A stretch of 63,605 nt of DNA, counting the filler, from Candidatus Eiseniibacteriota bacterium (GTDB lineage Bacteria; Orphanbacterota; Orphanbacteria; Orphanbacterales; Orphanbacteraceae), in the NCBI GenBank assembly GCA_043809585.1. It is 6 parts of 6 records of this genome, joined end to end, with 100 filler letters (N's around TTAATTAATTAA, not from the genome) between each part and the next. Parts side by side here need not be neighbours in the genome. Positions count along the whole stretch, not along the records: positions 1 to 9,282 come from JBDROZ010000024.1; 5 more parts are not named here. One strand, 5' to 3'. The position numbers were made by a program, and so were the translations under genes. Every line of letters starts with the position of its first letter. The first letter of the stretch is position 1. Below, piece after piece: positions 2,271-15,188 of the stretch. Under the pieces are notes generated by a model. The model was not told the origin of the DNA, made no database searches, and worked only from the letters and a program-made list of their open reading frames with translations.

Positions 2271-2580
2271 TTTCGGGGGACACAATACTGAATAGGTTCA
2301 CTCGGGGACACAATACGGAATAGCCGGTTCGGGGGACACGATACCTGACTCGCGAAGGTTCACTCGGGGACACAATACGGAATAGCCGGTTCGGGGGACA
2401 CGATACCTGACTCGCGAAGCACCTGCGGAGACGAAATCCGGCGGTTTGTCGTTTGAAGAGAACGATTTGAACGTGACGATCCCGCTTACCCACCTCACCG
2501 GGGAAGGGGCATGGTGTCCCCCGAACTGCGAGTTCGGTATTGTGTCCCCCGAACTACGAGTTCGGTATTGTGTCCCCCGG
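2271..2580. repeat. Cluster of GGGGACAC(A/G)ATAC REP-like motifs including an exact 62-bp tandem duplication
   Basis: Five plus-strand motifs (about 2275, 2304, 2331, 2366, 2393) and three inverted GTGTCCCC motifs (about 2514, 2542, 2570). 2294-2355 is repeated at 2356-2417. Lies between convergent genes. Confidence 0.85.
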
Positions 2581-4080
2581 TTTGCGGTTGTTCTTCCGCA
2601 AGTCCCGGAGGAGGCGGGCGAGGTCCGTGAGAACCCTCCGTCCCCCTGGAACGACGATCCAGCCGATCCCGTCGAGGGCGAGGAAGAGGGGAAGGTCGAT
2701 CCAGAGCGCCGAGAGGGGGGAGCCGGGATAGCCGTCGAGGCTCATGAGAAGGGCGAGTCCTCCCCCCGCGAGCAGGGCCGCCGCCGCGGGCCTCCCGATC
2801 GTCCCGTAGAAGTCGCTCATGCGGATGGGCGATCCCCGGAAGCAGTAGAGCGCGCCCGGCAGGAGGAGGATCCCCGACGCGATCGAGAATCCCGCCGCCA
2901 CCCCCGCCGGTCCCCACTTGATCCCGATCAGGAACGCCGCCGCCGTGACCGCGGTCGCGGCGATCTCCCACCGGAGCTGCCTCGCCGCCCGGCCGAGGGA
3001 GACGTACGCCCAGCCCGTGCCCATGTGGAGGAGGGTGACCAGGGCGACGGGAGAGAGGATCCGGAAGATCGGGATCGCCGCCTCCCACTGATCGCCGAGG
3101 AGGAGGTAGATCACTTTCCGTGTGTCGAGCACCAGAAAGCAGATGACCGGCATGCCGAGAGTGGTCATGAGGAGCATCCCCTGCCGCCAGTAGCGGCGGT
3201 AGCGGTCGGGCTCGTCCTGAAGACGGGAGAGCACGGGGACGGCGACGCGGGCGACGGGGAAGGAGAGCTGCTGGAAGGGGGCGACGAGCCACCCCGCCGC
3301 CTTCGCGTAGAGGCCGAGGAGCCGGGCGTCGGTAAATCGGCCGATCAAGATGCGGTCCAGGTTCCGCCCGACGCTCCGGACGAGGCGTGATCCGCTGAGG
3401 TACCCGCCGAAGGCGATCATGCCCCTTACCTCGGCGGGCCGGAACCGGCGATCCGGCCGCCAGTCGCAGATCCGCCAGCAAAGCAGGGTCTGCACCGACG
3501 CGGTGACGAGCCGGAGGACCAGGAGGGACCAGAAACGCCCCCCCTTCCATGCCGTGGCGACCGCCGCGGCGACCCCCACGAGTTGGGAGAAGAGCTCCAC
3601 CGCGGCGAGCGCCCCGAAACGCATCCGGCGGCGGAGGAGGGCCCGGTGCTGGAGGGAGAGGGCGTCGATCAGGGAGACGACGCCGAAGAGGGGGGTGATC
3701 CCGAGGAGCGCGGGCTCCCCGTAGAACCGGACGAGGAGGGGGGCGAGGATGATCGTGATCACCGCGACGGCGAGGCCGAGCAGGCCGTTCAACCAGAAGA
3801 GGGTGCTCACCTGTTCCTGGGTGACGACCGCTTGCTGCACCGTGGCCGTCGGAAGGCCTAGGTCCCGGAGGATCACGAGGAACATCATCACCGCCACTAC
3901 CATGGCGATGAGGCCGAAGTCCCGGGGCGTGAGGATGCGGGCGAGGATCATGGTGGAGCCGACGGTGAGAGCGAAACGCCCCGCCTGGGCGGCCATGGTC
4001 GCCGCGCCCCCCCGGATGGATCGTCCACGGAGATCCTCTTGAAGGCCGTCGGTGCGGAGGTGTCTGTCGTTCCGTTCCAG
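2554..4080 (-). CDS. Polysaccharide flippase (Wzx/WzxC-like, MOP superfamily)
   Basis: DLRGRSIRGGAATM...ILARILTPRDFGLIAM, DLGLPTATVQ, NLDRILIGRF...LGLYAKA, about 12 hydrophobic segments. Start uncertain: the ORF extends to 4257, AAGGAG precedes a CTG at 4080, and the first ATG is near 3996. Confidence 0.88.
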   Translation of the reverse strand: MERNDRHLRTDGLQEDLRGRSIRGGAATMAAQAGRFALTVGSTMILARILTPRDFGLIAMVVAVMMFLVILRDLGLPTATVQQAVVTQEQVSTLFWLNGLLGLAVAVITIILAPLLVRFYGEPALLGITPLFGVVSLIDALSLQHRALLRRRMRFGALAAVELFSQLVGVAAAVATAWKGGRFWSLLVLRLVTASVQTLLCWRICDWRPDRRFRPAEVRGMIAFGGYLSGSRLVRSVGRNLDRILIGRFTDARLLGLYAKAAGWLVAPFQQLSFPVARVAVPVLSRLQDEPDRYRRYWRQGMLLMTTLGMPVICFLVLDTRKVIYLLLGDQWEAAIPIFRILSPVALVTLLHMGTGWAYVSLGRAARQLRWEIAATAVTAAAFLIGIKWGPAGVAAGFSIASGILLLPGALYCFRGSPIRMSDFYGTIGRPAAAALLAGGGLALLMSLDGYPGSPLSALWIDLPLFLALDGIGWIVVPGGRRVLTDLARLLRDLRKNNRKPGDTIPNS

Positions 4081-4272
4081 GATCCGGTCTCCTTGCTTCG
4101 CCCCTCGGGGGCCCGCGCTCCTCGCAGACCCGAAGATGCCCGAACTCCGCACTCGCCTCTCGGAGAGGTCCTGCCCAGGATACACGACCCCGCCGGCATG
4201 GGACCAGAGATCCCTCCGGGGGACCCGGTGGCCCTCCCGGGAACCGGGCCCGGACAATCATCGAGTTTTGAC

Positions 4273-4301
4273 TGGACGGTTTTCGGGGTTGGCGCTACTC
4301 T
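4273..4301 (+). promoter_or_regulatory. Candidate sigma70 promoter for a small structured RNA
   Basis: TGGACG (4273-4278), 17-nt spacer, TACTCT (4296-4301). Confidence 0.35.
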
Positions 4302-4307
4302 TAAAAA

Positions 4308-4570
4308 AAGAGAGGGGTCCGCGGCAAGGACCGCGGCGGCGCTTCAGCCTCGGGCGGGCATGGCGCCGGGCGAGGATGGGACTCGCCGATCGCTCCGCGC
4401 CCGGGAAGGAGGTGATCCGTTGAATAACGACCGATGCGGCTTGTTGGAGGTGGCGGCCCCGTAAGGGCACCTACCACGCAAGTGGCACCAGGGTCACCCC
4501 GGCGGGGGAACCCACCGCCACCGATAACGGCACTGTGACGGCCCCGCTCCGGAAGGAGTGGGGCCGTTCT
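4308..4570 (+). ncRNA. Candidate structured small RNA or small-ORF mRNA
   Basis: Several hairpins with GNRA loops (CCC-GTAA-GGG 4458-4467, CCAC-GCAA-GTGG 4474-4485), long-range pairing of 4411-4418 with 4491-4498, and a 13-bp terminal hairpin at 4538-4567. Confidence 0.45.
4420..4464 (+). CDS. Putative 14-aa small peptide MNNDRCGLLEVAAP
   Basis: Extended Shine-Dalgarno AAGGAGGTGAT (4406-4416), TTG start, TAA stop in a hairpin loop. Confidence 0.35.
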   Translation: MNNDRCGLLEVAAP

Positions 4571-4704
4571 CATGAGACCGGGTTCGAGTGAGGATCGTCA
4601 TCGATGACGATCCTCACGTATGATGGTCAGACGGCACTGTGACGGCCCCGCTCCGGAAGGAGCGGGGCCGTTCTCGTGAGACCGGGTTCGAGTGGGGATC
4701 GTCA
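4527..4704 (+). repeat. 74-bp direct repeat (period 104), each copy with a terminator-like hairpin, around a perfect 30-bp palindrome
   Basis: 4527-4600 nearly matches 4631-4704. Hairpin ACGGCCCCGCTCC-GGAA-GGAGYGGGGCCGT. Palindrome GTGAGGATCGTCATCGATGACGATCCTCAC at 4588-4617. Confidence 0.9.
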
Positions 4705-4714
4705 CCCATTGCCT

Positions 4715-4776
4715 AAATAGGGACAGTCACCTATTAGCCTTCTCCGTCCTGAGGCAATAGGTGACTGTCCCTATTT
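4715..4776. repeat. REP-doublet-like perfect 21-bp inverted repeat
   Basis: AAATAGGGACAGTCACCTATT (4715-4735) and AATAGGTGACTGTCCCTATTT (4756-4776). A related copy is at 15019-15064. Confidence 0.85.
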
Positions 4777-4783
4777 GACGCGC

Positions 4784-5689
4784 TCAGCGCACCCGCTTGC
4801 CGAAGTGCTGGTCCACGTTGCGGGGGTAGACGTACTCCTCGAAGGAGTAGGTCCGGCCGTCGTCGCCGGTCACGGCCATTTGAATGATCAGTGTGGTCCG
4901 GAGAGACGCGCTCTCCCTCTGATACTGGACCCGGAACTTGGTGACGTTCTCGCAGAGGGGCAAAGACTCGGTGATTGTCTTCGTTTGGGTGTATTCCCAC
5001 AGAACCCCCGTCCCCGAGTACCACCGGTACCACCGGGGGTTGAGAGAGTCTTCGTTCTTCTGCCCGTCCTCGTCGTCGTCCTTCTTGTCCATTTGGTCCA
5101 CATTGCCGTCTCCGTCGTCGTCGATCCCCCGGATTCCGGAGTAATTGTCCCCGTTCATGTCTTCGCCGAGGTCTTCGTCGATGGAACCGTCGCCGTCGTC
5201 GTCTCGTCCGTTCAGGTTCTCCTCGTTCTTCAGCCTGTACGGCCAGTAGTCCTCGTCGTCGTCTTCTTTGTCCCCGCTCGTGTCGATGTAGCCGTCTCCG
5301 TCGTCGTCCACGCCCTTGATCCCCGGCACATCGTTCAGGACCATGTCTTTATCCGTGTCCTCGTCGATCCGGGGGAAGAGGGAGTCGCCGAAGTAGAAAT
5401 CCCCGTCGTCGTTAATGAAGCCGGAGAGGGCGAGGATGTCCCGCTCCGGTTCGTAGCCGTTCGGGATGAGGAGGAAGGTCGCCCGTTTCGCGGCGCCCGA
5501 CATCCGCTCCATGGCGGCGAGGCCGTCGTAGTAAGTGGAAAGGGTCCCCCCCTCCCGGGCGTTCGCCTGGAGAAGGGACCGGGTGAAGCCCGAAAGGGCG
5601 ACCGCGATGAGCGCCGTGATCGAGACGGCGATCATCAGTTCGAGAAGGGTGAGCCCCTTCGATCCGAGGGGTTGCAGGGTGCTTCTCAT
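4784..5689 (-). CDS. Prepilin-type minor pilin (PilW/GspJ-like) with acidic DDDGDG repeats
   Basis: KG|LTLLELMIAVSITALIAVAL class III signal with E5; three DDDGDG motifs. Confidence 0.85.
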   Translation of the reverse strand: MRSTLQPLGSKGLTLLELMIAVSITALIAVALSGFTRSLLQANAREGGTLSTYYDGLAAMERMSGAAKRATFLLIPNGYEPERDILALSGFINDDGDFYFGDSLFPRIDEDTDKDMVLNDVPGIKGVDDDGDGYIDTSGDKEDDDEDYWPYRLKNEENLNGRDDDGDGSIDEDLGEDMNGDNYSGIRGIDDDGDGNVDQMDKKDDDEDGQKNEDSLNPRWYRWYSGTGVLWEYTQTKTITESLPLCENVTKFRVQYQRESASLRTTLIIQMAVTGDDGRTYSFEEYVYPRNVDQHFGKRVR

Positions 5690-6087
5690 GGGATCTTCTC
5701 GATGTCGCCCTTCGTGTCGACCACGACGGTGGAGAGGGAGTCGCCCCTGAAGATGACGGTCACGAGCTTGACGTCCGGCTCGTTGCTCCCGTCTCCGTTC
5801 AGGTCGATGCCGGAGACGCGGCGGGTGATGGTCTCGGCTTCTCCGCCGATCCAGGTTTCCATGGAGGCGGCGCCCAGCTTGTCGAAGGGGGTGGCGATGG
5901 ACAGTTCCAGGGCGCTCCGGAGATGGCTTTCCGTCGGAACCCGGGTCACCGCCGTTCCCTCCGCCTGCAGGCCCGAAACATAAGCGCCCGCGACGGCGGT
6001 GACGATGACGCCTAAGATCGCGAGGGAGAGGGCCACCTCGACGAGCGTGAAACCTCGCCGTCCCGACTGAATCCTCCGGCTATTCAT
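5686..6087 (-). CDS. Prepilin-type minor pilin (PilV/GspI-like)
   Basis: RRG|FTLVEVALSLAILGVIV; overlaps neighbouring genes. Confidence 0.85.
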   Translation of the reverse strand: MNSRRIQSGRRGFTLVEVALSLAILGVIVTAVAGAYVSGLQAEGTAVTRVPTESHLRSALELSIATPFDKLGAASMETWIGGEAETITRRVSGIDLNGDGSNEPDVKLVTVIFRGDSLSTVVVDTKGDIEKIP

Positions 6088-6655
6088 GAACCGATACCCT
6101 CCCGGTCAGAGAATCGACGGCGATTCGGACGCGTCTATTCCCCCGCTCGATCGTGGCGGCGCCGGAGGCCGACGCGGAGCCGATCTCGTCGAACTCGACC
6201 CATTCGACACCCCCGAAGTCGGCCTCGATCCGATCCACGCCTCCGCCTCCCACACTTCTGTCCTCCGACAGCTCGATGACGTAGTCCAGGCCCCGCGCGA
6301 ACGGGTGTCCGGCGGGGGCGAACTCCCAGTCGTCGGCCTTGGTGGATCCGATCGACACGATCGATGTGTCCCGAAGGTCGTCCCCGCCCGCGGAGACGAG
6401 CCGCTCCACGGTCACGGTCATCGTTGCGCCGTCGAAGCTGACCCGCGAGGGGAGCCCGGAGTTGATCGCGTAGAGACGTCCGTACTCGAGGGCCGTGACG
6501 ATCCCGTCCGTCGCCGCCCGAATCGCTCCGTCCTCGAGAGAGGACCCGAGCCAGGAAACCGCGAGCCCGCCCGCCAGGCCGAGGATGATGACGACGAGAA
6601 GCGCCTCGATGAGCGTGTAGCCCCGGTCCGTCTGGTTCTTTCGCGTGGCTCTCAC
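6080..6655 (-). CDS. Prepilin-type minor pilin (FimT/GspH-like)
   Basis: RG|YTLIEALLVVIILGL, ALEYGRLYAI, C-terminal VDSLTGRVSV typical of GspH/FimT. Confidence 0.85.
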   Translation of the reverse strand: MRATRKNQTDRGYTLIEALLVVIILGLAGGLAVSWLGSSLEDGAIRAATDGIVTALEYGRLYAINSGLPSRVSFDGATMTVTVERLVSAGGDDLRDTSIVSIGSTKADDWEFAPAGHPFARGLDYVIELSEDRSVGGGGVDRIEADFGGVEWVEFDEIGSASASGAATIERGNRRVRIAVDSLTGRVSVHE

Positions 6656-8289
6656 GGCCTCGTCACCGCCATGTCGAAAACGAAGCTCCCGGAGGTGTTC
6701 ACGTAGGTCACCGCCTCCCCGGCGCCGAAGCCGCCGTCATCGTGCACGGAGCTCACGAGGGTCTTCAAGTTGTCCACGACCAGGCAGACGGTCTCATCGG
6801 TTCGGGCGACCGACTGAAGCCGGAGGCGATGGATGTTCATGCTGATCGCCGGCCCCGACTTCACGGGGATCGAGGAGAAGCCGGTCCCCTTCGTCCACTC
6901 GAGGTAGAAGATCTTTCCGTACGATTGCTTCCCCCACGCGAAGAGGGCCTCGTCCCCCGTCGATCGCCACGCCACGTCGAAGGAAACGACCTGGTCTGAA
7001 GGGAGGTTGGTCTCCACCTCCCGGTGGTCGGTCCATGCGCTCCCGTTCCAGACGACGAGATGGAGGTCCGAGAAACCGTCTCCGGCGGCGAGGAGCATGT
7101 AATTGTCCGTCGGATCGGGCTCGAGCCGGAAGAGCTGCCCCTGGCGGCCGAAGTCCCAGATGTCTTTGGCCCCATCGAAGCCCGTTCCGGTCCATTCCCG
7201 GTACCTACTCTTGTTGTTTCCCTGCTCGCCGTAGACGACGAGGGCGTGCCCGGAGAGCCTCTCATAGGCCAGGTCGAAGGCCCCGGTATTGAGGAGGGGA
7301 ATCTTGTCGTCGATCTTGCCTTCCGAGGAGAACCCGTCGCCGTCCCAGACGAAGGCCTCCAGCTCATCGTCCCCGTTCAGGACCACGGCGAGAATCTCGT
7401 CGGTCTCCGGATGGGACGCCATTTTCACCACGTGCGCTTCCGGCTTGTTCAATTGGAAAGCCGTGTCCGGCGGATTCGGAGCCCATGCGGCGCCGTTCCA
7501 AACGGAGTACATGACCGCGTTATACCCGTCGGTTCCCGCGAGGAGCAAGGCATCTCCCGTGACGGACTCGTACGCCAGATCGAAGCACTGTTCGCCCCCG
7601 TAGGACGGGAAGCCCATTCGGTTTCCCCACGCCGACCCGTCGAAGACCGAAACCTCGACGGTGCCGTCCGACTTCTGCACTCCCATGACCATCTCATTCG
7701 ACCGGGGGCTCCCCTCGAGTTCGACCCAGAGCGCCTCCGCCGGGTCGGCGTAGGCGAAGGCGTCGTCGGTCCAGGTGCTGTCGGTCCACTCCCGCCACTT
7801 CGGCCCCGGGTTGCCGGGGTAGGCGACGCCTCCGATCACGAGGTAGTCGGACCAGTAGGCGGTGTAGAGGCGCTCCTGGAATCCCGGGACTCCCATGAAG
7901 GCGACGTACGACTGCCGGGCGACGAAGTCGCCGTACTGCCCGATGGCGGCGATGGTCGCGAAGGTCGTCGAGGTGGGAACCCGGACCCTGTAGCCGTACC
8001 GGCCGCCGGCGAGGGAGTGCATGTAATAGGTCGTGTCGTTCTTGATCGAGCCCGCGTCGTTCCGGATCGCCCACAGCCCGTGCTGGATCGCCGTGTCCGC
8101 CAGATACTCCGCTTGGATCCGATCGTGCCGGCCGAGCACCGCGGACGAGAGGATGCCGGACCGGCTGATGAAGGCGAGGGCGAGTGTGGTCAGGATCATG
8201 GTCATCACCAGGATCGCCACGTAGGAGAAACCGGACCGGCTCCTCCACACTCTTTTCGCCGGAGGGAGATTCTGTTCACTGCCGCTCAT
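6652..8289 (-). CDS. PilX/GspK-like pilin fused to a repeat (beta-propeller-like) domain
   Basis: RSG|FSYVAILVMTMILTTLAL (no E5), QAEYLADTAIQHG, then repeated WxGxxW/F motifs. Start placed at ATG 8289. Confidence 0.75.
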   Translation of the reverse strand: MSGSEQNLPPAKRVWRSRSGFSYVAILVMTMILTTLALAFISRSGILSSAVLGRHDRIQAEYLADTAIQHGLWAIRNDAGSIKNDTTYYMHSLAGGRYGYRVRVPTSTTFATIAAIGQYGDFVARQSYVAFMGVPGFQERLYTAYWSDYLVIGGVAYPGNPGPKWREWTDSTWTDDAFAYADPAEALWVELEGSPRSNEMVMGVQKSDGTVEVSVFDGSAWGNRMGFPSYGGEQCFDLAYESVTGDALLLAGTDGYNAVMYSVWNGAAWAPNPPDTAFQLNKPEAHVVKMASHPETDEILAVVLNGDDELEAFVWDGDGFSSEGKIDDKIPLLNTGAFDLAYERLSGHALVVYGEQGNNKSRYREWTGTGFDGAKDIWDFGRQGQLFRLEPDPTDNYMLLAAGDGFSDLHLVVWNGSAWTDHREVETNLPSDQVVSFDVAWRSTGDEALFAWGKQSYGKIFYLEWTKGTGFSSIPVKSGPAISMNIHRLRLQSVARTDETVCLVVDNLKTLVSSVHDDGGFGAGEAVTYVNTSGSFVFDMAVTRP

Positions 8290-8584
8290 GACCGAACACA
8301 CTTCTCCTCGAGGGGGGAGGGACGATCCCCGCAATCGGTTATCCGCGGATCTCTTATCCCCATGTTCGGCACCGCCGGCGATCCGGGTGAGGGGGGACGG
8401 GGGAGCGAGAACAGGGCGGAGAGCAGGCTGTCAGAGGGTTACTGATTGCAGGACAGCGAGTTGTGCCGGTTACTCTGGGGCCGCGCTCCGACCCCTGCCT
8501 TCCCGAATCCATTGACGTACCGGCCCCGCTCGGCCATGATGACTCCATTCGCGATTCCGTGATTCTTACGAAAGGAGCTTTGTG

Positions 8585-9145
8585 ATGATGCGTCGATTCG
8601 CGTGGATGCCGGTCCTCCTCCTCGCGGCCATGGGACTCTTCGGGTGCGGCGGCGGTGGTTCGGAAGAGGGGGCGGAGAAGGCGGCGGAGACCGTGGCGGA
8701 GACCGTGGAAAACGCCCCCCAGAAGTCGGAGGCGCCGAAAACGATGACGGCGGACGAGATGAAGACCGCTCTGGCCGAGAAACTGCAGATCGATCTGAGC
8801 GACATGGTCGAGCATGAGAGCGGTTTGAAGTGGATCGTCCGCGAGGAGGGGACCGGCGCGGTTCCCCAGAAAGGCCAGAGGATCAAGGCCCACTACACCG
8901 GTTATCTCCTGAACGGAACCAAGTTCGATTCGAGCGTCGATCGGGGCGCGCCCTTCGAGACACCCATCGGAGTGGGCCGGGTCATCCAGGGGTGGGACAT
9001 CGCCTTCACGAACATGAAGGTCGGCGAGAAGCGCGTCCTCTTCATCCCTCCCAGTCTCGCCTACGGCGCTCAAGGCGCCGGCAACGTCATCCCGCCCAAC
9101 GCGGAGCTGGTCTTCGACGTTTCGCTGATCGACATCATGCACTAG
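8585..9145 (+). CDS. FKBP-type peptidyl-prolyl isomerase, lipoprotein
   Basis: Lipobox LFGC; HYTGYLLNGTKFDSSVDRG, VIQGWD, IPPSLAYG, IPPNAELVFDV. AAGGAG RBS. Confidence 0.95.
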   Translation: MMRRFAWMPVLLLAAMGLFGCGGGGSEEGAEKAAETVAETVENAPQKSEAPKTMTADEMKTALAEKLQIDLSDMVEHESGLKWIVREEGTGAVPQKGQRIKAHYTGYLLNGTKFDSSVDRGAPFETPIGVGRVIQGWDIAFTNMKVGEKRVLFIPPSLAYGAQGAGNVIPPNAELVFDVSLIDIMH

Positions 9146-9282
9146 CCTGGATTATGCATGAATCTCCGTCACGAGGGCTCGGATCGCCTGACGAGAAGCC
9201 GACTTGGACGAGCCGCCACCGGAGGCAGGGACCCGTCGGGCAGTTGGGCTTATCGCGCCCATCGAAGCGATAAGCCCTAGTG
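9143..9282 (+). mobile_element. MITE family A, long variant, left part; its TAG is the FKBP stop codon
   Basis: Begins C-TA-GCCTGGATTATGCATGAATCTCC. Reverse complement at 9383-9520; first part shared with 17801 and 29479. Confidence 0.8.
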
Positions 9283-9382
9283 NNNNNNNNNNNNNNNNNN
9301 NNNNNNNNNNNNNNNNNNNNNNNNNNTTAATTAATTAANNNNNNNNNNNNNNNNNNNNNNNNNNNNNNNNNNNNNNNNNNNN
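9283..9382. other. Artificial contig linker (also 17701-17800, 29379-29478, 39451-39550, 61483-61582)
   Basis: N-run, TTAATTAATTAA (stops in all six frames), N-run; identical 100-nt format five times. Confidence 0.98.
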
Positions 9383-15018: not shown

Positions 15019-15064
15019 GGGGACGGTCGCCTATTTCCACATCTGGGAATAGGTGACTGTCCCC
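15019..15064. repeat. Second REP-doublet-like inverted repeat, same family as 4715-4776
   Basis: GGGGACGGTCGCCTATT and AATAGGTGACTGTCCCC; both mismatches give G-U pairs on the plus strand. Confidence 0.75.
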
Positions 15065-15188
15065 ATCTTCCCATTGTCCGTTATCCGCTTTCCAAACGAG
15101 CAAGATCGTGGAAGCGCCGGGAAAGGAGCGGCGGATATGCTTGGACAAGTGCCCGGAGCGTCCCTCTTTGTCGGCCTATCGATGGGGA

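Follow-up and report, generated by a model that had tools for sequence, protein, structure and literature searches.

What fills the gap between a flippase gene and a prepilin-type gene cluster in a genome of Candidatus Eiseniibacteriota bacterium (assembly GCA_043809585.1)? The window, as we call the whole stretch of 63,605 nucleotides (nt) analysed here, carries an element at about positions 4308-4572 of its plus strand that a first-pass annotation, made from the sequence alone, had described as an RNA running from promoter to terminator, with a 14-codon open reading frame (ORF) behind a sequestered Shine-Dalgarno (SD) sequence. That description was correct in part. All the sequences quoted in it are present, the proposed -35/-10 pair could not be confirmed, and there is indeed a plus-strand RNA (about 260 nt in the first description, about 265 nt in ours) with a 3' terminator of its own, which neither neighbouring gene explains. 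We conclude with high confidence that the element is real and represents a new family of conserved, plus-strand, structured RNA genes; what its short frame is for is the question that occupies most of this text.

The novelty claimed at first pass was upheld, as Rfam 15 gave no match at gathering thresholds in the whole window. A permissive Rfam scan of positions 4100-4900 (E up to 10) gave only hits far below threshold, of which just one overlaps the unit on the plus strand (CC2171, scoring 20.1 bits where 75 is required), and ARAGORN found no tRNA or transfer-messenger RNA (tmRNA) gene. Literature searches, supplementary files aside, returned no description of such an RNA, and the main text of PMC11109978, likewise taken without its supplementary files, makes no mention of Gemmatimon, Eisenbacteria or 16S. 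Related genomes were entered via the window's isocitrate dehydrogenase, and a BLAST search with the gap found stretches of about 240 nt, 71-74% identical, in two of five of them; BLAST matches were obtained in 6/9 and 41/206 genomes of two phylum-level groups. A covariance model built on window positions 4364-4527 (model R1, 167 positions) matched 6/9 genomes of the first group, 54 of 151 sampled genomes of the second (41 strongly and 13 weakly, at 27-37 bits, the weak ones being divergent homologs according to their alignments) and 82 of 151 sampled genomes of a third phylum-level group, which was entered through loci with the NCBI titles Krumholzibacteriia, Gemmatimonas sp. and 'Fibrobacteraceae'. 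There was one match per genome in 53/54 and 81/82 positive genomes, and no other copy of the element was found within the window. The family occurs as a single copy per genome, in Eisenbacteria as well as in two or more related phylum-level groups. R1 gave no match in G001, G004, G220, G338, G371-G375, G324 and G377 and one match of 25.6 bits in G003; since the genomes are metagenome-assembled genomes (MAGs), a miss by R1 does not show absence. A synteny search via the flippase gave 70 pattern matches, none of which was confirmed. A scan of a viral collection gave one pattern match, not recognised by the covariance model and rejected as a family member (L230, positions 9263-9311 of an IMG/VR contig), because it belongs to a phage gene of the ordinary kind, led by a strong SD. 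There AGGAGGTGATCCATTG, with the same extended SD and TTG start, precedes an ordinary long ORF.

A homolog search with covariation analysis had been proposed as one of the checks, and it favours the element: homologs occur in many genomes and their helices covary. Two MAFFT alignments, of 32 and 81 sequences and not fitted to structure, were scored against an eight-helix model, with partners moved by 1-3 columns as the slid control. In the smaller alignment 87.7% of cells were paired, against at most 57.3% when slid, and 28 of 52 pairs changed on both sides; in the larger the values were 87.3%, at most 53.0% and 35 of 52, counts that overstate the number of independent events since the sequences are related by phylogeny. 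None of 500 shuffles reached the observed values in either alignment. RNAalifold, run on the 81 sequences (alignment A4), independently gave P1, P2, P2b, P3, P4', P5, P5a and the terminator. The elements of the fold are as follows.

4319-4336, plus strand: P1, the 5' hairpin, CCGCGG 4319-4324 with CCGCGG 4331-4336; 87.5% paired, six of seven pairs changing on both sides.
4337-4368, plus strand: P2/P2b hairpin; P2 (re-registered) 89.5% paired with seven of eight pairs changing on both sides, P2b 90.3% paired.
4369-4387, plus strand: P3 hairpin, GGCGAG/CTCGCC; 99.4% paired, three pairs covarying (for example CG 37, AU 25, GC 11, UA 6).
4441-4530, plus strand: P4', long-range helix of UUGUU 4441-4445 (codons 8-9 of the short ORF) with AACGG 4526-4530; 86.3% paired.
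4449-4522, plus strand: P5, or a:d, GGUGGCG 4449-4455 (codons 10-12) with CGCCACC 4516-4522; 98.9% paired.
4456-4468, plus strand: P5a hairpin, with the stop codon TAA 4462-4464 in its loop; 81.1% paired.
4474-4485, plus strand: P5b hairpin, whose 3' arm is element c.
4497-4514, plus strand: P5c hairpin, CCCC 4497-4500 with GGGG 4505-4508, then invariant ACCCA 4510-4514 (alignments A1 and A4).

In P4' five of six pairs change on both sides (UUCGG/CCGAA, UUAGU/ACUGA, UUGUU/AACGG), and P5 closes a multi-branch domain, closing the junction in most single-sequence folds as well. All three 5' pairings pointed out at first pass were recovered, GGTCC 4316-4320 with GGACC 4328-4332, GGCGAG 4369-4374 with CTCGCC 4382-4387, and CGGGCG 4351-4356 with CGCCCG 4398-4403. 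Pair 45:55 of P2b is GC in 41, AU in 14 and CG in 12 sequences, and its apical loop holds an invariant GGG at 4352-4354 (C-GGG-C) that can pair with CCC 4400-4402; the three pairs are GC in 71-79 of 81 sequences, with little variation, and an invariant CCCC stands four nt before the SD. A longer pseudoknot of the P2b loop with CCCCGA was rejected in its outer two pairs, where 20 and 33 of 81 cells are unpaired, which leaves the hardly varying GGG/CCC core. The P3 loop, UGGG 4377-4380, is invariant and complementary to the invariant ACCCA 4510-4514 in the P5 junction, so that UGGG may contact ACCCA, and the invariant G and C runs may represent tertiary contacts. P5c is variable in sequence, and G196, A200 and C201-C203 are invariant in alignments A1 and A4. 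A stem at the start codon, P4 (UCCAUUGG/UUCGGUGGA), predicted by RNAalifold on A1, was discarded, as it is uncompensated in L104, L110 and L119 and would compete for its 3' strand with the covarying P4'. Two hairpins after the SD had been described as GNRA-capped; the GUAA hairpin with the stop codon and the GCAA hairpin at 4474-4485 both exist, but GNRA is not the conserved trait. In homologs the P5a loop is G/U-U-A-G/A or holds UGA, and the stop falls inside it throughout the alignment rows inspected, with differing loop sequence and stop position (+0 or +3). Because the loop sequence varies yet the stop stays, what was taken for a cap is rather a stop codon that has been conserved. As a separate observation, the closest relative (L101, G011:C32; 85% identity) has an insertion of about 185 nt between the equivalents of 4486 and 4490, in the variable P5b/P5c region; it is bounded by inverted repeats of about 20 nt and resembles either a long extra hairpin or an insert of the MITE type (miniature inverted-repeat transposable element).

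Two further features frame the transcription unit.

4268-4273, plus strand: -35-like TTGACT, probable promoter element by sequence and by its position in homologs; putative in the window.
4538-4572, plus strand: intrinsic terminator with a 13-bp stem, GGAA loop and tail UUCUC; 94.4% paired, 10 of 11 pairs changing on both sides.

Among the homologs TTGAC was found 39 times, in 38 of 93 units, and 36 of these sites precede the modelled core by 85-99 nt; the main clade shows TTGACA-N17-NAnAAT. In the window the claimed -35/-10 pair could not be sustained, as the best partner of TTGACT is TACTCT 4296-4301, 22 nt away, and a consensus scan found no sigma-70-like site. The 3' hairpin was as first described (4538-4550 with 4555-4567, 13 bp with one G.U, GGAA loop), and at least four T occur in the nine nt after the stem in 71/81 copies. 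Of the paired cells in the 32-sequence alignment, summed over helices, 143 of 1646 are G.U, which would be A.C mismatches on the other strand and therefore mark the plus strand as the transcribed one. The positioned TTGAC, the covarying 3' hairpin with its T tail and this share of G.U pairs together indicate plus-strand transcription. The predicted fold energy of the plus strand is -149.1 kcal/mol (z = -3.94; none of 200 shuffles as good), and that of the minus strand is weaker (-134.5, z -3.32). Metatranscriptome reads had been suggested as a check at first pass; short metatranscriptome contigs from close relatives were found in two studies and consist almost only of the RNA (233 nt, equivalent to 4332-4529, and 170 nt, equivalent to 4332-4499); they hint at expression in relatives, but being contigs from RNA libraries in which DNA carry-over is possible, they do not show strand, transcript ends, level or translation. 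One RNA-library contig has a 23-nt insert after 4500. The largest cluster of shared neighbours covers 9/75 loci. Of 96 units, 43 are followed by a gene on the opposite strand and 31 by one on the same strand; for the other 22 no downstream neighbour was called. This is a stand-alone gene whose flanking ORFs are not conserved, and the constant association with downstream genes of one pathway that is typical of a riboswitch or a cis-acting 5' leader was not found.

The short ORF and the SD before it could be followed in 96 copies aligned by model R1.

4406-4418, plus strand: extended SD, complement of the whole single-stranded 3' tail of 16S rRNA (16S ends taken from four carrier genomes).
4420-4464, plus strand: mini-ORF TTG...TAA of 14 codons (MNNDRCGLLEVAAP), present in 96/96 copies.

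The frame encoding MNNDRCGLLEVAAP, from TTG 4420-4422 to TAA 4462-4464, was as the first-pass annotation gave it, and it is kept in homologs. The start codon is TTG in 56 copies and GTG in 40, never ATG; the length is 12 codons in 7 copies, 13 in 2, 14 in 73 and 15 in 14; and the stop is TAG in 64, TAA in 20 and TGA in 12. Counted over start positions nt 1-33 in 91 distinct sequences, the frame itself contains 0 stop trinucleotides, against 85 for frame +1 and 88 for frame +2. Measured from the start codon to a conserved AGGUG, and from there on to the stop, the distances are (28,14) in 70 copies, (28,17) in 14, (23,13) in 7, (29,13) in 3 and (25,14) in 2. All five pairs sum to multiples of 3, so that insertions and deletions either leave the frame intact or compensate one another; between other conserved anchors every residue modulo 3 occurs among the distances, and in 14 sequences where the usual stop is lost it is re-created 3 nt downstream. 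The peptide behaves otherwise. There are 78 different peptides among the 96 copies, and the entropy at the three codon positions is 1.16/1.22/1.39 in codons 2-8 and 0.48/0.25/0.21 in codons 9-14, without the third-position excess expected of purifying selection on amino acids. Ten divergent-clade copies read the conserved GGAGGUGGCG in another frame, as ...SGGGGS or ...ISGGGCS and not as ...VEVASS, and conservation runs about 60 nt past the stop. Hence of the peptide-frame conservation that was to be checked, the frame held and the amino-acid sequence did not, and the comparison suggests that selection keeps the frame open and not the amino-acid sequence. It is probable, judging from these patterns, that the mini-ORF is engaged by ribosomes and is under selection as a frame. 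A long protein gene over the region was rejected for either strand (distance from a to d modulo 3, 37/22/29; P3 loop to SD, 18/49/14); a stop-free minus-strand frame of some kind crosses the core in 82/96 units.

The strong SD reported at first pass, AAGGAGGTGATCC at 4406-4418, is present and is the sole match at up to one mismatch in 63.6 kb, where 0.11 is expected. The 16S 3' ends of four carrier genomes read ...CTGGATCACCTCCTTTCT, and 15-19 contiguous pairs with this tail, G.U included, can form in 92/95 copies; with Watson-Crick pairs only, the run is 14-16 nt in 64/95. The commonest variant, GATCC to GGTCC, still pairs, as G.U, and the spacing from GGAGG to the start codon is 7 nt in 95/96 copies. 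Window genes use ordinary SDs (13/31 genes, against 6/30 mid-gene controls), from which it follows that ribosomes of this host read SDs. Two claims about the SD did not hold. The stretches GGTGATCC (4411-4418) and GGGTCACC (4491-4498) are complementary and form a helix in the window's own minimum free energy fold, but this is no conserved hiding of the SD: the helix was rejected as a family feature because the homolog alignments vary where its 3' arm is located. Nor do folding ensembles over the 96 copies support translational silencing by a sequestered SD, since they give it no constant partner (local upstream 0.26, 5' domain 0.14, 3' part of the ORF 0.15, rest 0.13), and conserved SD occlusion was set aside because the predicted partners are heterogeneous across copies.

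How such a frame could matter without its peptide is suggested by the 3' domain, in which the 3' two-thirds of the ORF form the 5' strands of P4' and P5, with P5a directly after, and by one more element.

4482-4486, plus strand: element c, GUGGC (GUGGCG in the family description), the 3' arm of P5b and alternative partner of d at 4516-4522.

The d strand (CGCCACC) can pair with either of two segments, which exclude each other and both covary with it: a, inside the ORF, and c, between P5a and P5c. In the 81 sequences the key pair of a:d is GC in 63, AU in 11, GU in 3 and other in 4, and that of c:d, at the same d column, is GC in 58, AU in 12, GU in 2 and other in 9. For c:d, 86.4% of cells are paired, against at most 60.5% when slid, and five of six pairs change on both sides. 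The triplets (a,c,d) are G,G,C in 55 sequences and A,A,T in 8, with mixed classes mostly wobble-compatible, in a table where the regular expression for c mis-picks some sequences. When the ribosome footprint was masked in silico, d paired with the stretch that separates it from a in 49/86 copies, mostly with c. We propose that a ribosome would load at the SD of about 15 nt, start at UUG or GUG and translate 12-15 codons. On its way it would have to unzip P4', P5 and P5a, and opening these would free d for c, so that the RNA would flip between a closed and an open fold according to translation. The output could be a binding surface that is exposed or hidden, or control of the RNA's own lifetime, and it would most likely act in trans, given that there is no constant downstream gene. 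We regard the chances that this RNA is a stand-alone, ribosome-dependent switch of the leader-peptide type as about even, and the more specific proposal that translation of the mini-ORF toggles a:d and c:d could as well be right as wrong.

Several observations weigh against this interpretation, apart from the shared phylogeny and the nature of the RNA-library contigs already mentioned. The covariation of a and c lies mainly in one column (G-C to A-U), mismatches occur at that key column in 4/81 a:d and 9/81 c:d cells, the c assignments behind the triplets contain errors, and in masked folds d was paired with c in only 49/86 copies. The SD is predicted to be mostly paired in thermodynamic ensembles (0.73), which may mean restricted loading. 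The terminator looks constitutive, so that an output of the switch is not visible in cis, and only five frame-preserving indel classes support the frame. The window's own promoter is non-canonical in its 22-nt spacing and its scan without a site, and its own terminator tail is weak (GTTCTCATG). Lastly, about half of the genomes searched yielded no copy of the RNA, which, these being incomplete MAGs, is uninformative either way.

The rival explanation that fares best also takes the SD at face value. The RNA would be a ribosome decoy, in which a mimic of an initiation region captures the whole 16S tail and holds a 30S or 70S particle until translation of the ORF melts the 3' domain and releases the ribosome. 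The 15-19 contiguous pairs in 92/95 copies go far beyond ordinary SDs in the window, the start codon, always UUG or GUG and in 0/96 copies AUG, would suit a slow conversion, and a single-copy gene with a housekeeping-like distribution, whose RNA is present in metatranscriptome contigs, fits such a role. 6S RNA keeps RNA polymerase bound up to the synthesis of a short product RNA, and a ribosome-directed counterpart is conceivable, with a housekeeping mRNA mimic, a helix of about 15 bp, a parked 30S or 70S and a reset by the change from a:d to c:d. However, a sponge would need a copy number near that of ribosomes, the same features fit a simple site of efficient loading, and in L230 a phage gene has AGGAGGTGATCCATTG as a strong but ordinary SD. 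We consider the decoy unlikely, and its 6S-like version, which is drawn by analogy, equally so. If it were true, Eisenbacteria and the related phyla would possess a regulator of the translation machinery that belongs to a new class.

The closest comparison for the SD itself is rpsU of Bacteroidia, where an extended SD before the gene for bS21 is known, as far as the accessible part of PMC7797042 goes. In Flavobacterium the rpsU mRNA forms a 13-bp helix between SD and anti-SD (ASD) that gives unusually stable complexes and tRNA-independent placement of the start, according to the accessible parts of PMC9976891 and PMC13000457, and this stability speaks for the decoy. As those parts describe it, the rpsU SD likewise complements virtually the whole 16S tail, with 13 bp there and about 15 here; it heads a normal protein gene in hosts otherwise without SDs and serves bS21 autoregulation, whereas the host here uses SDs. 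At about 2 bp more than the 13-bp rpsU helix, the complement described here is the longest natural example in the literature compared, a comparison made on accessible text and with the rpsU SD lengths of Supplementary Figure S7 of PMC9976891 outside it, and the element offers a test case for very long SD-ASD helices outside Bacteroidia. A link to bS21 and ASD sequestration was rejected, since the host uses SDs, the rpsU SDs of two carriers are ordinary, and PF01165 was not found in 3/5 carriers. Ribosomal_S21 (PF01165) had no match in G267, G346 and G271, which are apparently long-contig genomes of the third group, and occurs in one or two copies in two genomes of the Eisenbacteria group.

A somewhat weaker alternative removes the ribosome altogether. 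In a purely non-coding small RNA (sRNA), the SD-like run and the short frame would be by-products of constraints at the RNA level, such as the helices a:d and P4' or the binding of a protein or another RNA, and ribosomes would have no role. Codons 9-14 are in fact most conserved at their third positions (0.21), as such constraints would have it, the peptide differs between clades and the SD is predicted to be largely paired in ensembles. But by-products would hardly leave 0 in-frame stops against 85 and 88 off-frame, compensated indels, a 7-nt spacing in 95/96 copies and a stop re-created 3 nt downstream in 14 sequences, and the SD variants stay compatible with 16S pairing. We consider this reading rather improbable.

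The opposite view, that the RNA is an mRNA for a functional peptide of 12-15 residues, with structure for stability or translational control, was part of the original proposal and has become doubtful. It has on its side the open frame, the strong SD, the constant length and a loose peptide pattern in most copies (M-[DNS]-S-x-[RS]-x-[GSA]-[LS]-V-E-V-[AT]-S-[SP]), and a leader peptide of 14 residues that has its own function, peTrpL, is in print, to judge from the available portions of the reports cited below. The lack of codon periodicity, the divergent clade that uses another frame over GGAGGUGGCG in ten copies, the 78 peptides in 96 copies and the conservation about 60 nt beyond the stop nevertheless make it improbable. 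The dual-function sRNAs reviewed in PMC12310071 and PMC12612679 are, as the accessible text of these reviews presents them, likewise stand-alone small transcripts that hold a small ORF; they differ in that their small protein is conserved and functional, while here the frame is kept and the peptide is not.

Attenuators combine a promoter, a short ORF led by an SD, alternative pairings and a terminator, and a cis-acting, ribosome-dependent attenuator or leader of a downstream gene is the next reading to be weighed. The parts are there, with a promoter, an SD-led short ORF, alternative pairings of four segments and a terminator with a T tail, and a short SD-led ORF upstream of alternative helices is what the sequence of a leader-peptide attenuator would be expected to contain. 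The terminator is present and covarying. Its stem takes no part in the alternative helices found, and inspection of alignments and folds showed no evident antiterminator facing it. Across 96 units and 75 loci neither a constant co-oriented downstream operon nor constant regulatory leader codons were found; the next gene in the window is convergent, the downstream neighbour lies on the opposite strand in 43 of 96, on the same strand in 31 and is not called in 22, no neighbour family goes beyond 9/75 loci, and no run of codons stays constant. We judge this reading very improbable.

The stand-alone switch can nevertheless be compared with such attenuators. In Sinorhizobium the attenuator RNA rnTrpL acts in trans, together with the 14-residue peptide peTrpL, according to the portions available of 10.1101/606483, PMC7968998 and PMC7298713, and by analogy this would be the nearest precedent for trans action of the present RNA. 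Attenuators of the trpL/rnTrpL kind are alike in having their own promoter, an intrinsic terminator and, behind a strong SD, an ORF of about 14 codons, the 3' portion of which coincides with one strand of alternative helices; the sequence of their peptide is largely irrelevant to the switch, and the released RNA can act in trans. Unlike them, the RNA here has no constant operon and no run of regulatory codons, has an extra covarying 5' domain of 100 nt and a 15-nt SD, shares d and not the terminator stem between its alternative helices, and is conserved across phyla irrespective of context. If the switch model is true, it would be a sensor of the leader-peptide type freed from its operon, giving a general read-out, in trans, of translation status in almost unstudied phyla.

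A repeat of the REP (repetitive extragenic palindromic) or MITE type, a mobile-element remnant or a chance fold in GC-rich DNA can practically be dismissed, since in spite of the repeats just downstream in the window there is one copy in nearly every positive genome, no other copy in the window, and covariation with compensatory changes across three phylum-level groups.

Few single-copy structured RNAs are common to whole phyla, namely tmRNA, the RNA of RNase P, the signal recognition particle (SRP) RNA and 6S RNA, and each of them opened a field. A tmRNA has a tRNA-like domain, a short frame between structured domains and a stop codon in a hairpin. The RNA here resembles it as a single-copy RNA of housekeeping type with a short frame flanked by structure and the stop in a hairpin, but unlike tmRNA it has no tRNA-like domain, has an SD and a start codon, and ends in a terminator hairpin. 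Identity with tmRNA was rejected, as ARAGORN and Rfam found none and 4/5 long-contig carriers have a separate tmRNA above cut-off. The likeness to 6S RNA is by analogy only, that of an RNA which imitates a core machine's nucleic-acid substrate and is freed when a short product is synthesised; identity was rejected here too, with no RF00013 match, a multi-branched and not rod-like fold, and a separate 6S gene in 4/5 carriers. What sets the family apart is the long complement to the 16S tail, a frame kept without its peptide, and covarying, mutually exclusive helices placed where a translating ribosome would decide between them. Its addition to RNA databases would improve the annotation of lineages known only from MAGs.

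Turning to the surroundings in the window, a Wzx-type flippase gene lies on the minus strand at 2554-3996 if its start is ATG 3996 (Pfam Polysacc_synt_3, E 6e-74), and as this is its most likely start, the non-coding gap extends over 3997-4783. An intergenic gap had been noted, and is larger than was implied. The element had also been called antisense to both neighbours, and both do read as minus-strand genes, since the prepilin-type cluster, also on the minus strand, begins with 4784-5689. From 4784 to 9142 the minus strand carries a row of pseudopilin-like genes with N-terminal methylation motifs (PF07963) and adjoining ORFs without a Pfam match. Two ORFs overlap the unit, 4039-4464 on the plus strand, in the same frame as the mini-ORF, and 4301-4573 on the minus strand. 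The 3' end of the unit has been duplicated.

4631-4709, plus strand: second tandem copy of the 3' module, a window-specific duplication (79-nt direct repeat, 94%).

This tandem duplication of 79 nt (4527-4605 and 4631-4709, 94% identity, period 104) copies the linker, the terminator and its 3' flank, and the terminator stem of the second copy is perfect, with C in place of U. In a relative, a DNA contig passes from 4551 directly to 4658 but for 3 other letters, which indicates that this relative has a single 3' module. Of the DNA data compared with the window, the set with the best cover (X1) reached only 4573-4900, and the parts that it leaves bare carry no information. A perfect 30-nt palindrome, GTGAGGATCGTCATCGATGACGATCCTCAC at 4588-4617, sits where the two repeat copies meet, and a degenerate half of it recurs at 4692-4709. 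Just after the convergent pilin-like gene there is a perfect 21-bp inverted repeat (4715-4735 with 4756-4776), and a third copy of its arm, with 2 mismatches, lies 10 kb away at 15048-15068, which gives it a REP-type look. On the minus strand, P1 and a run of seven A at 4303-4332 would read as a hairpin with a T run behind it, much like a terminator; homologs do not keep the A run, and in the window this hairpin could halt read-through from the pilin operon toward the flippase gene.

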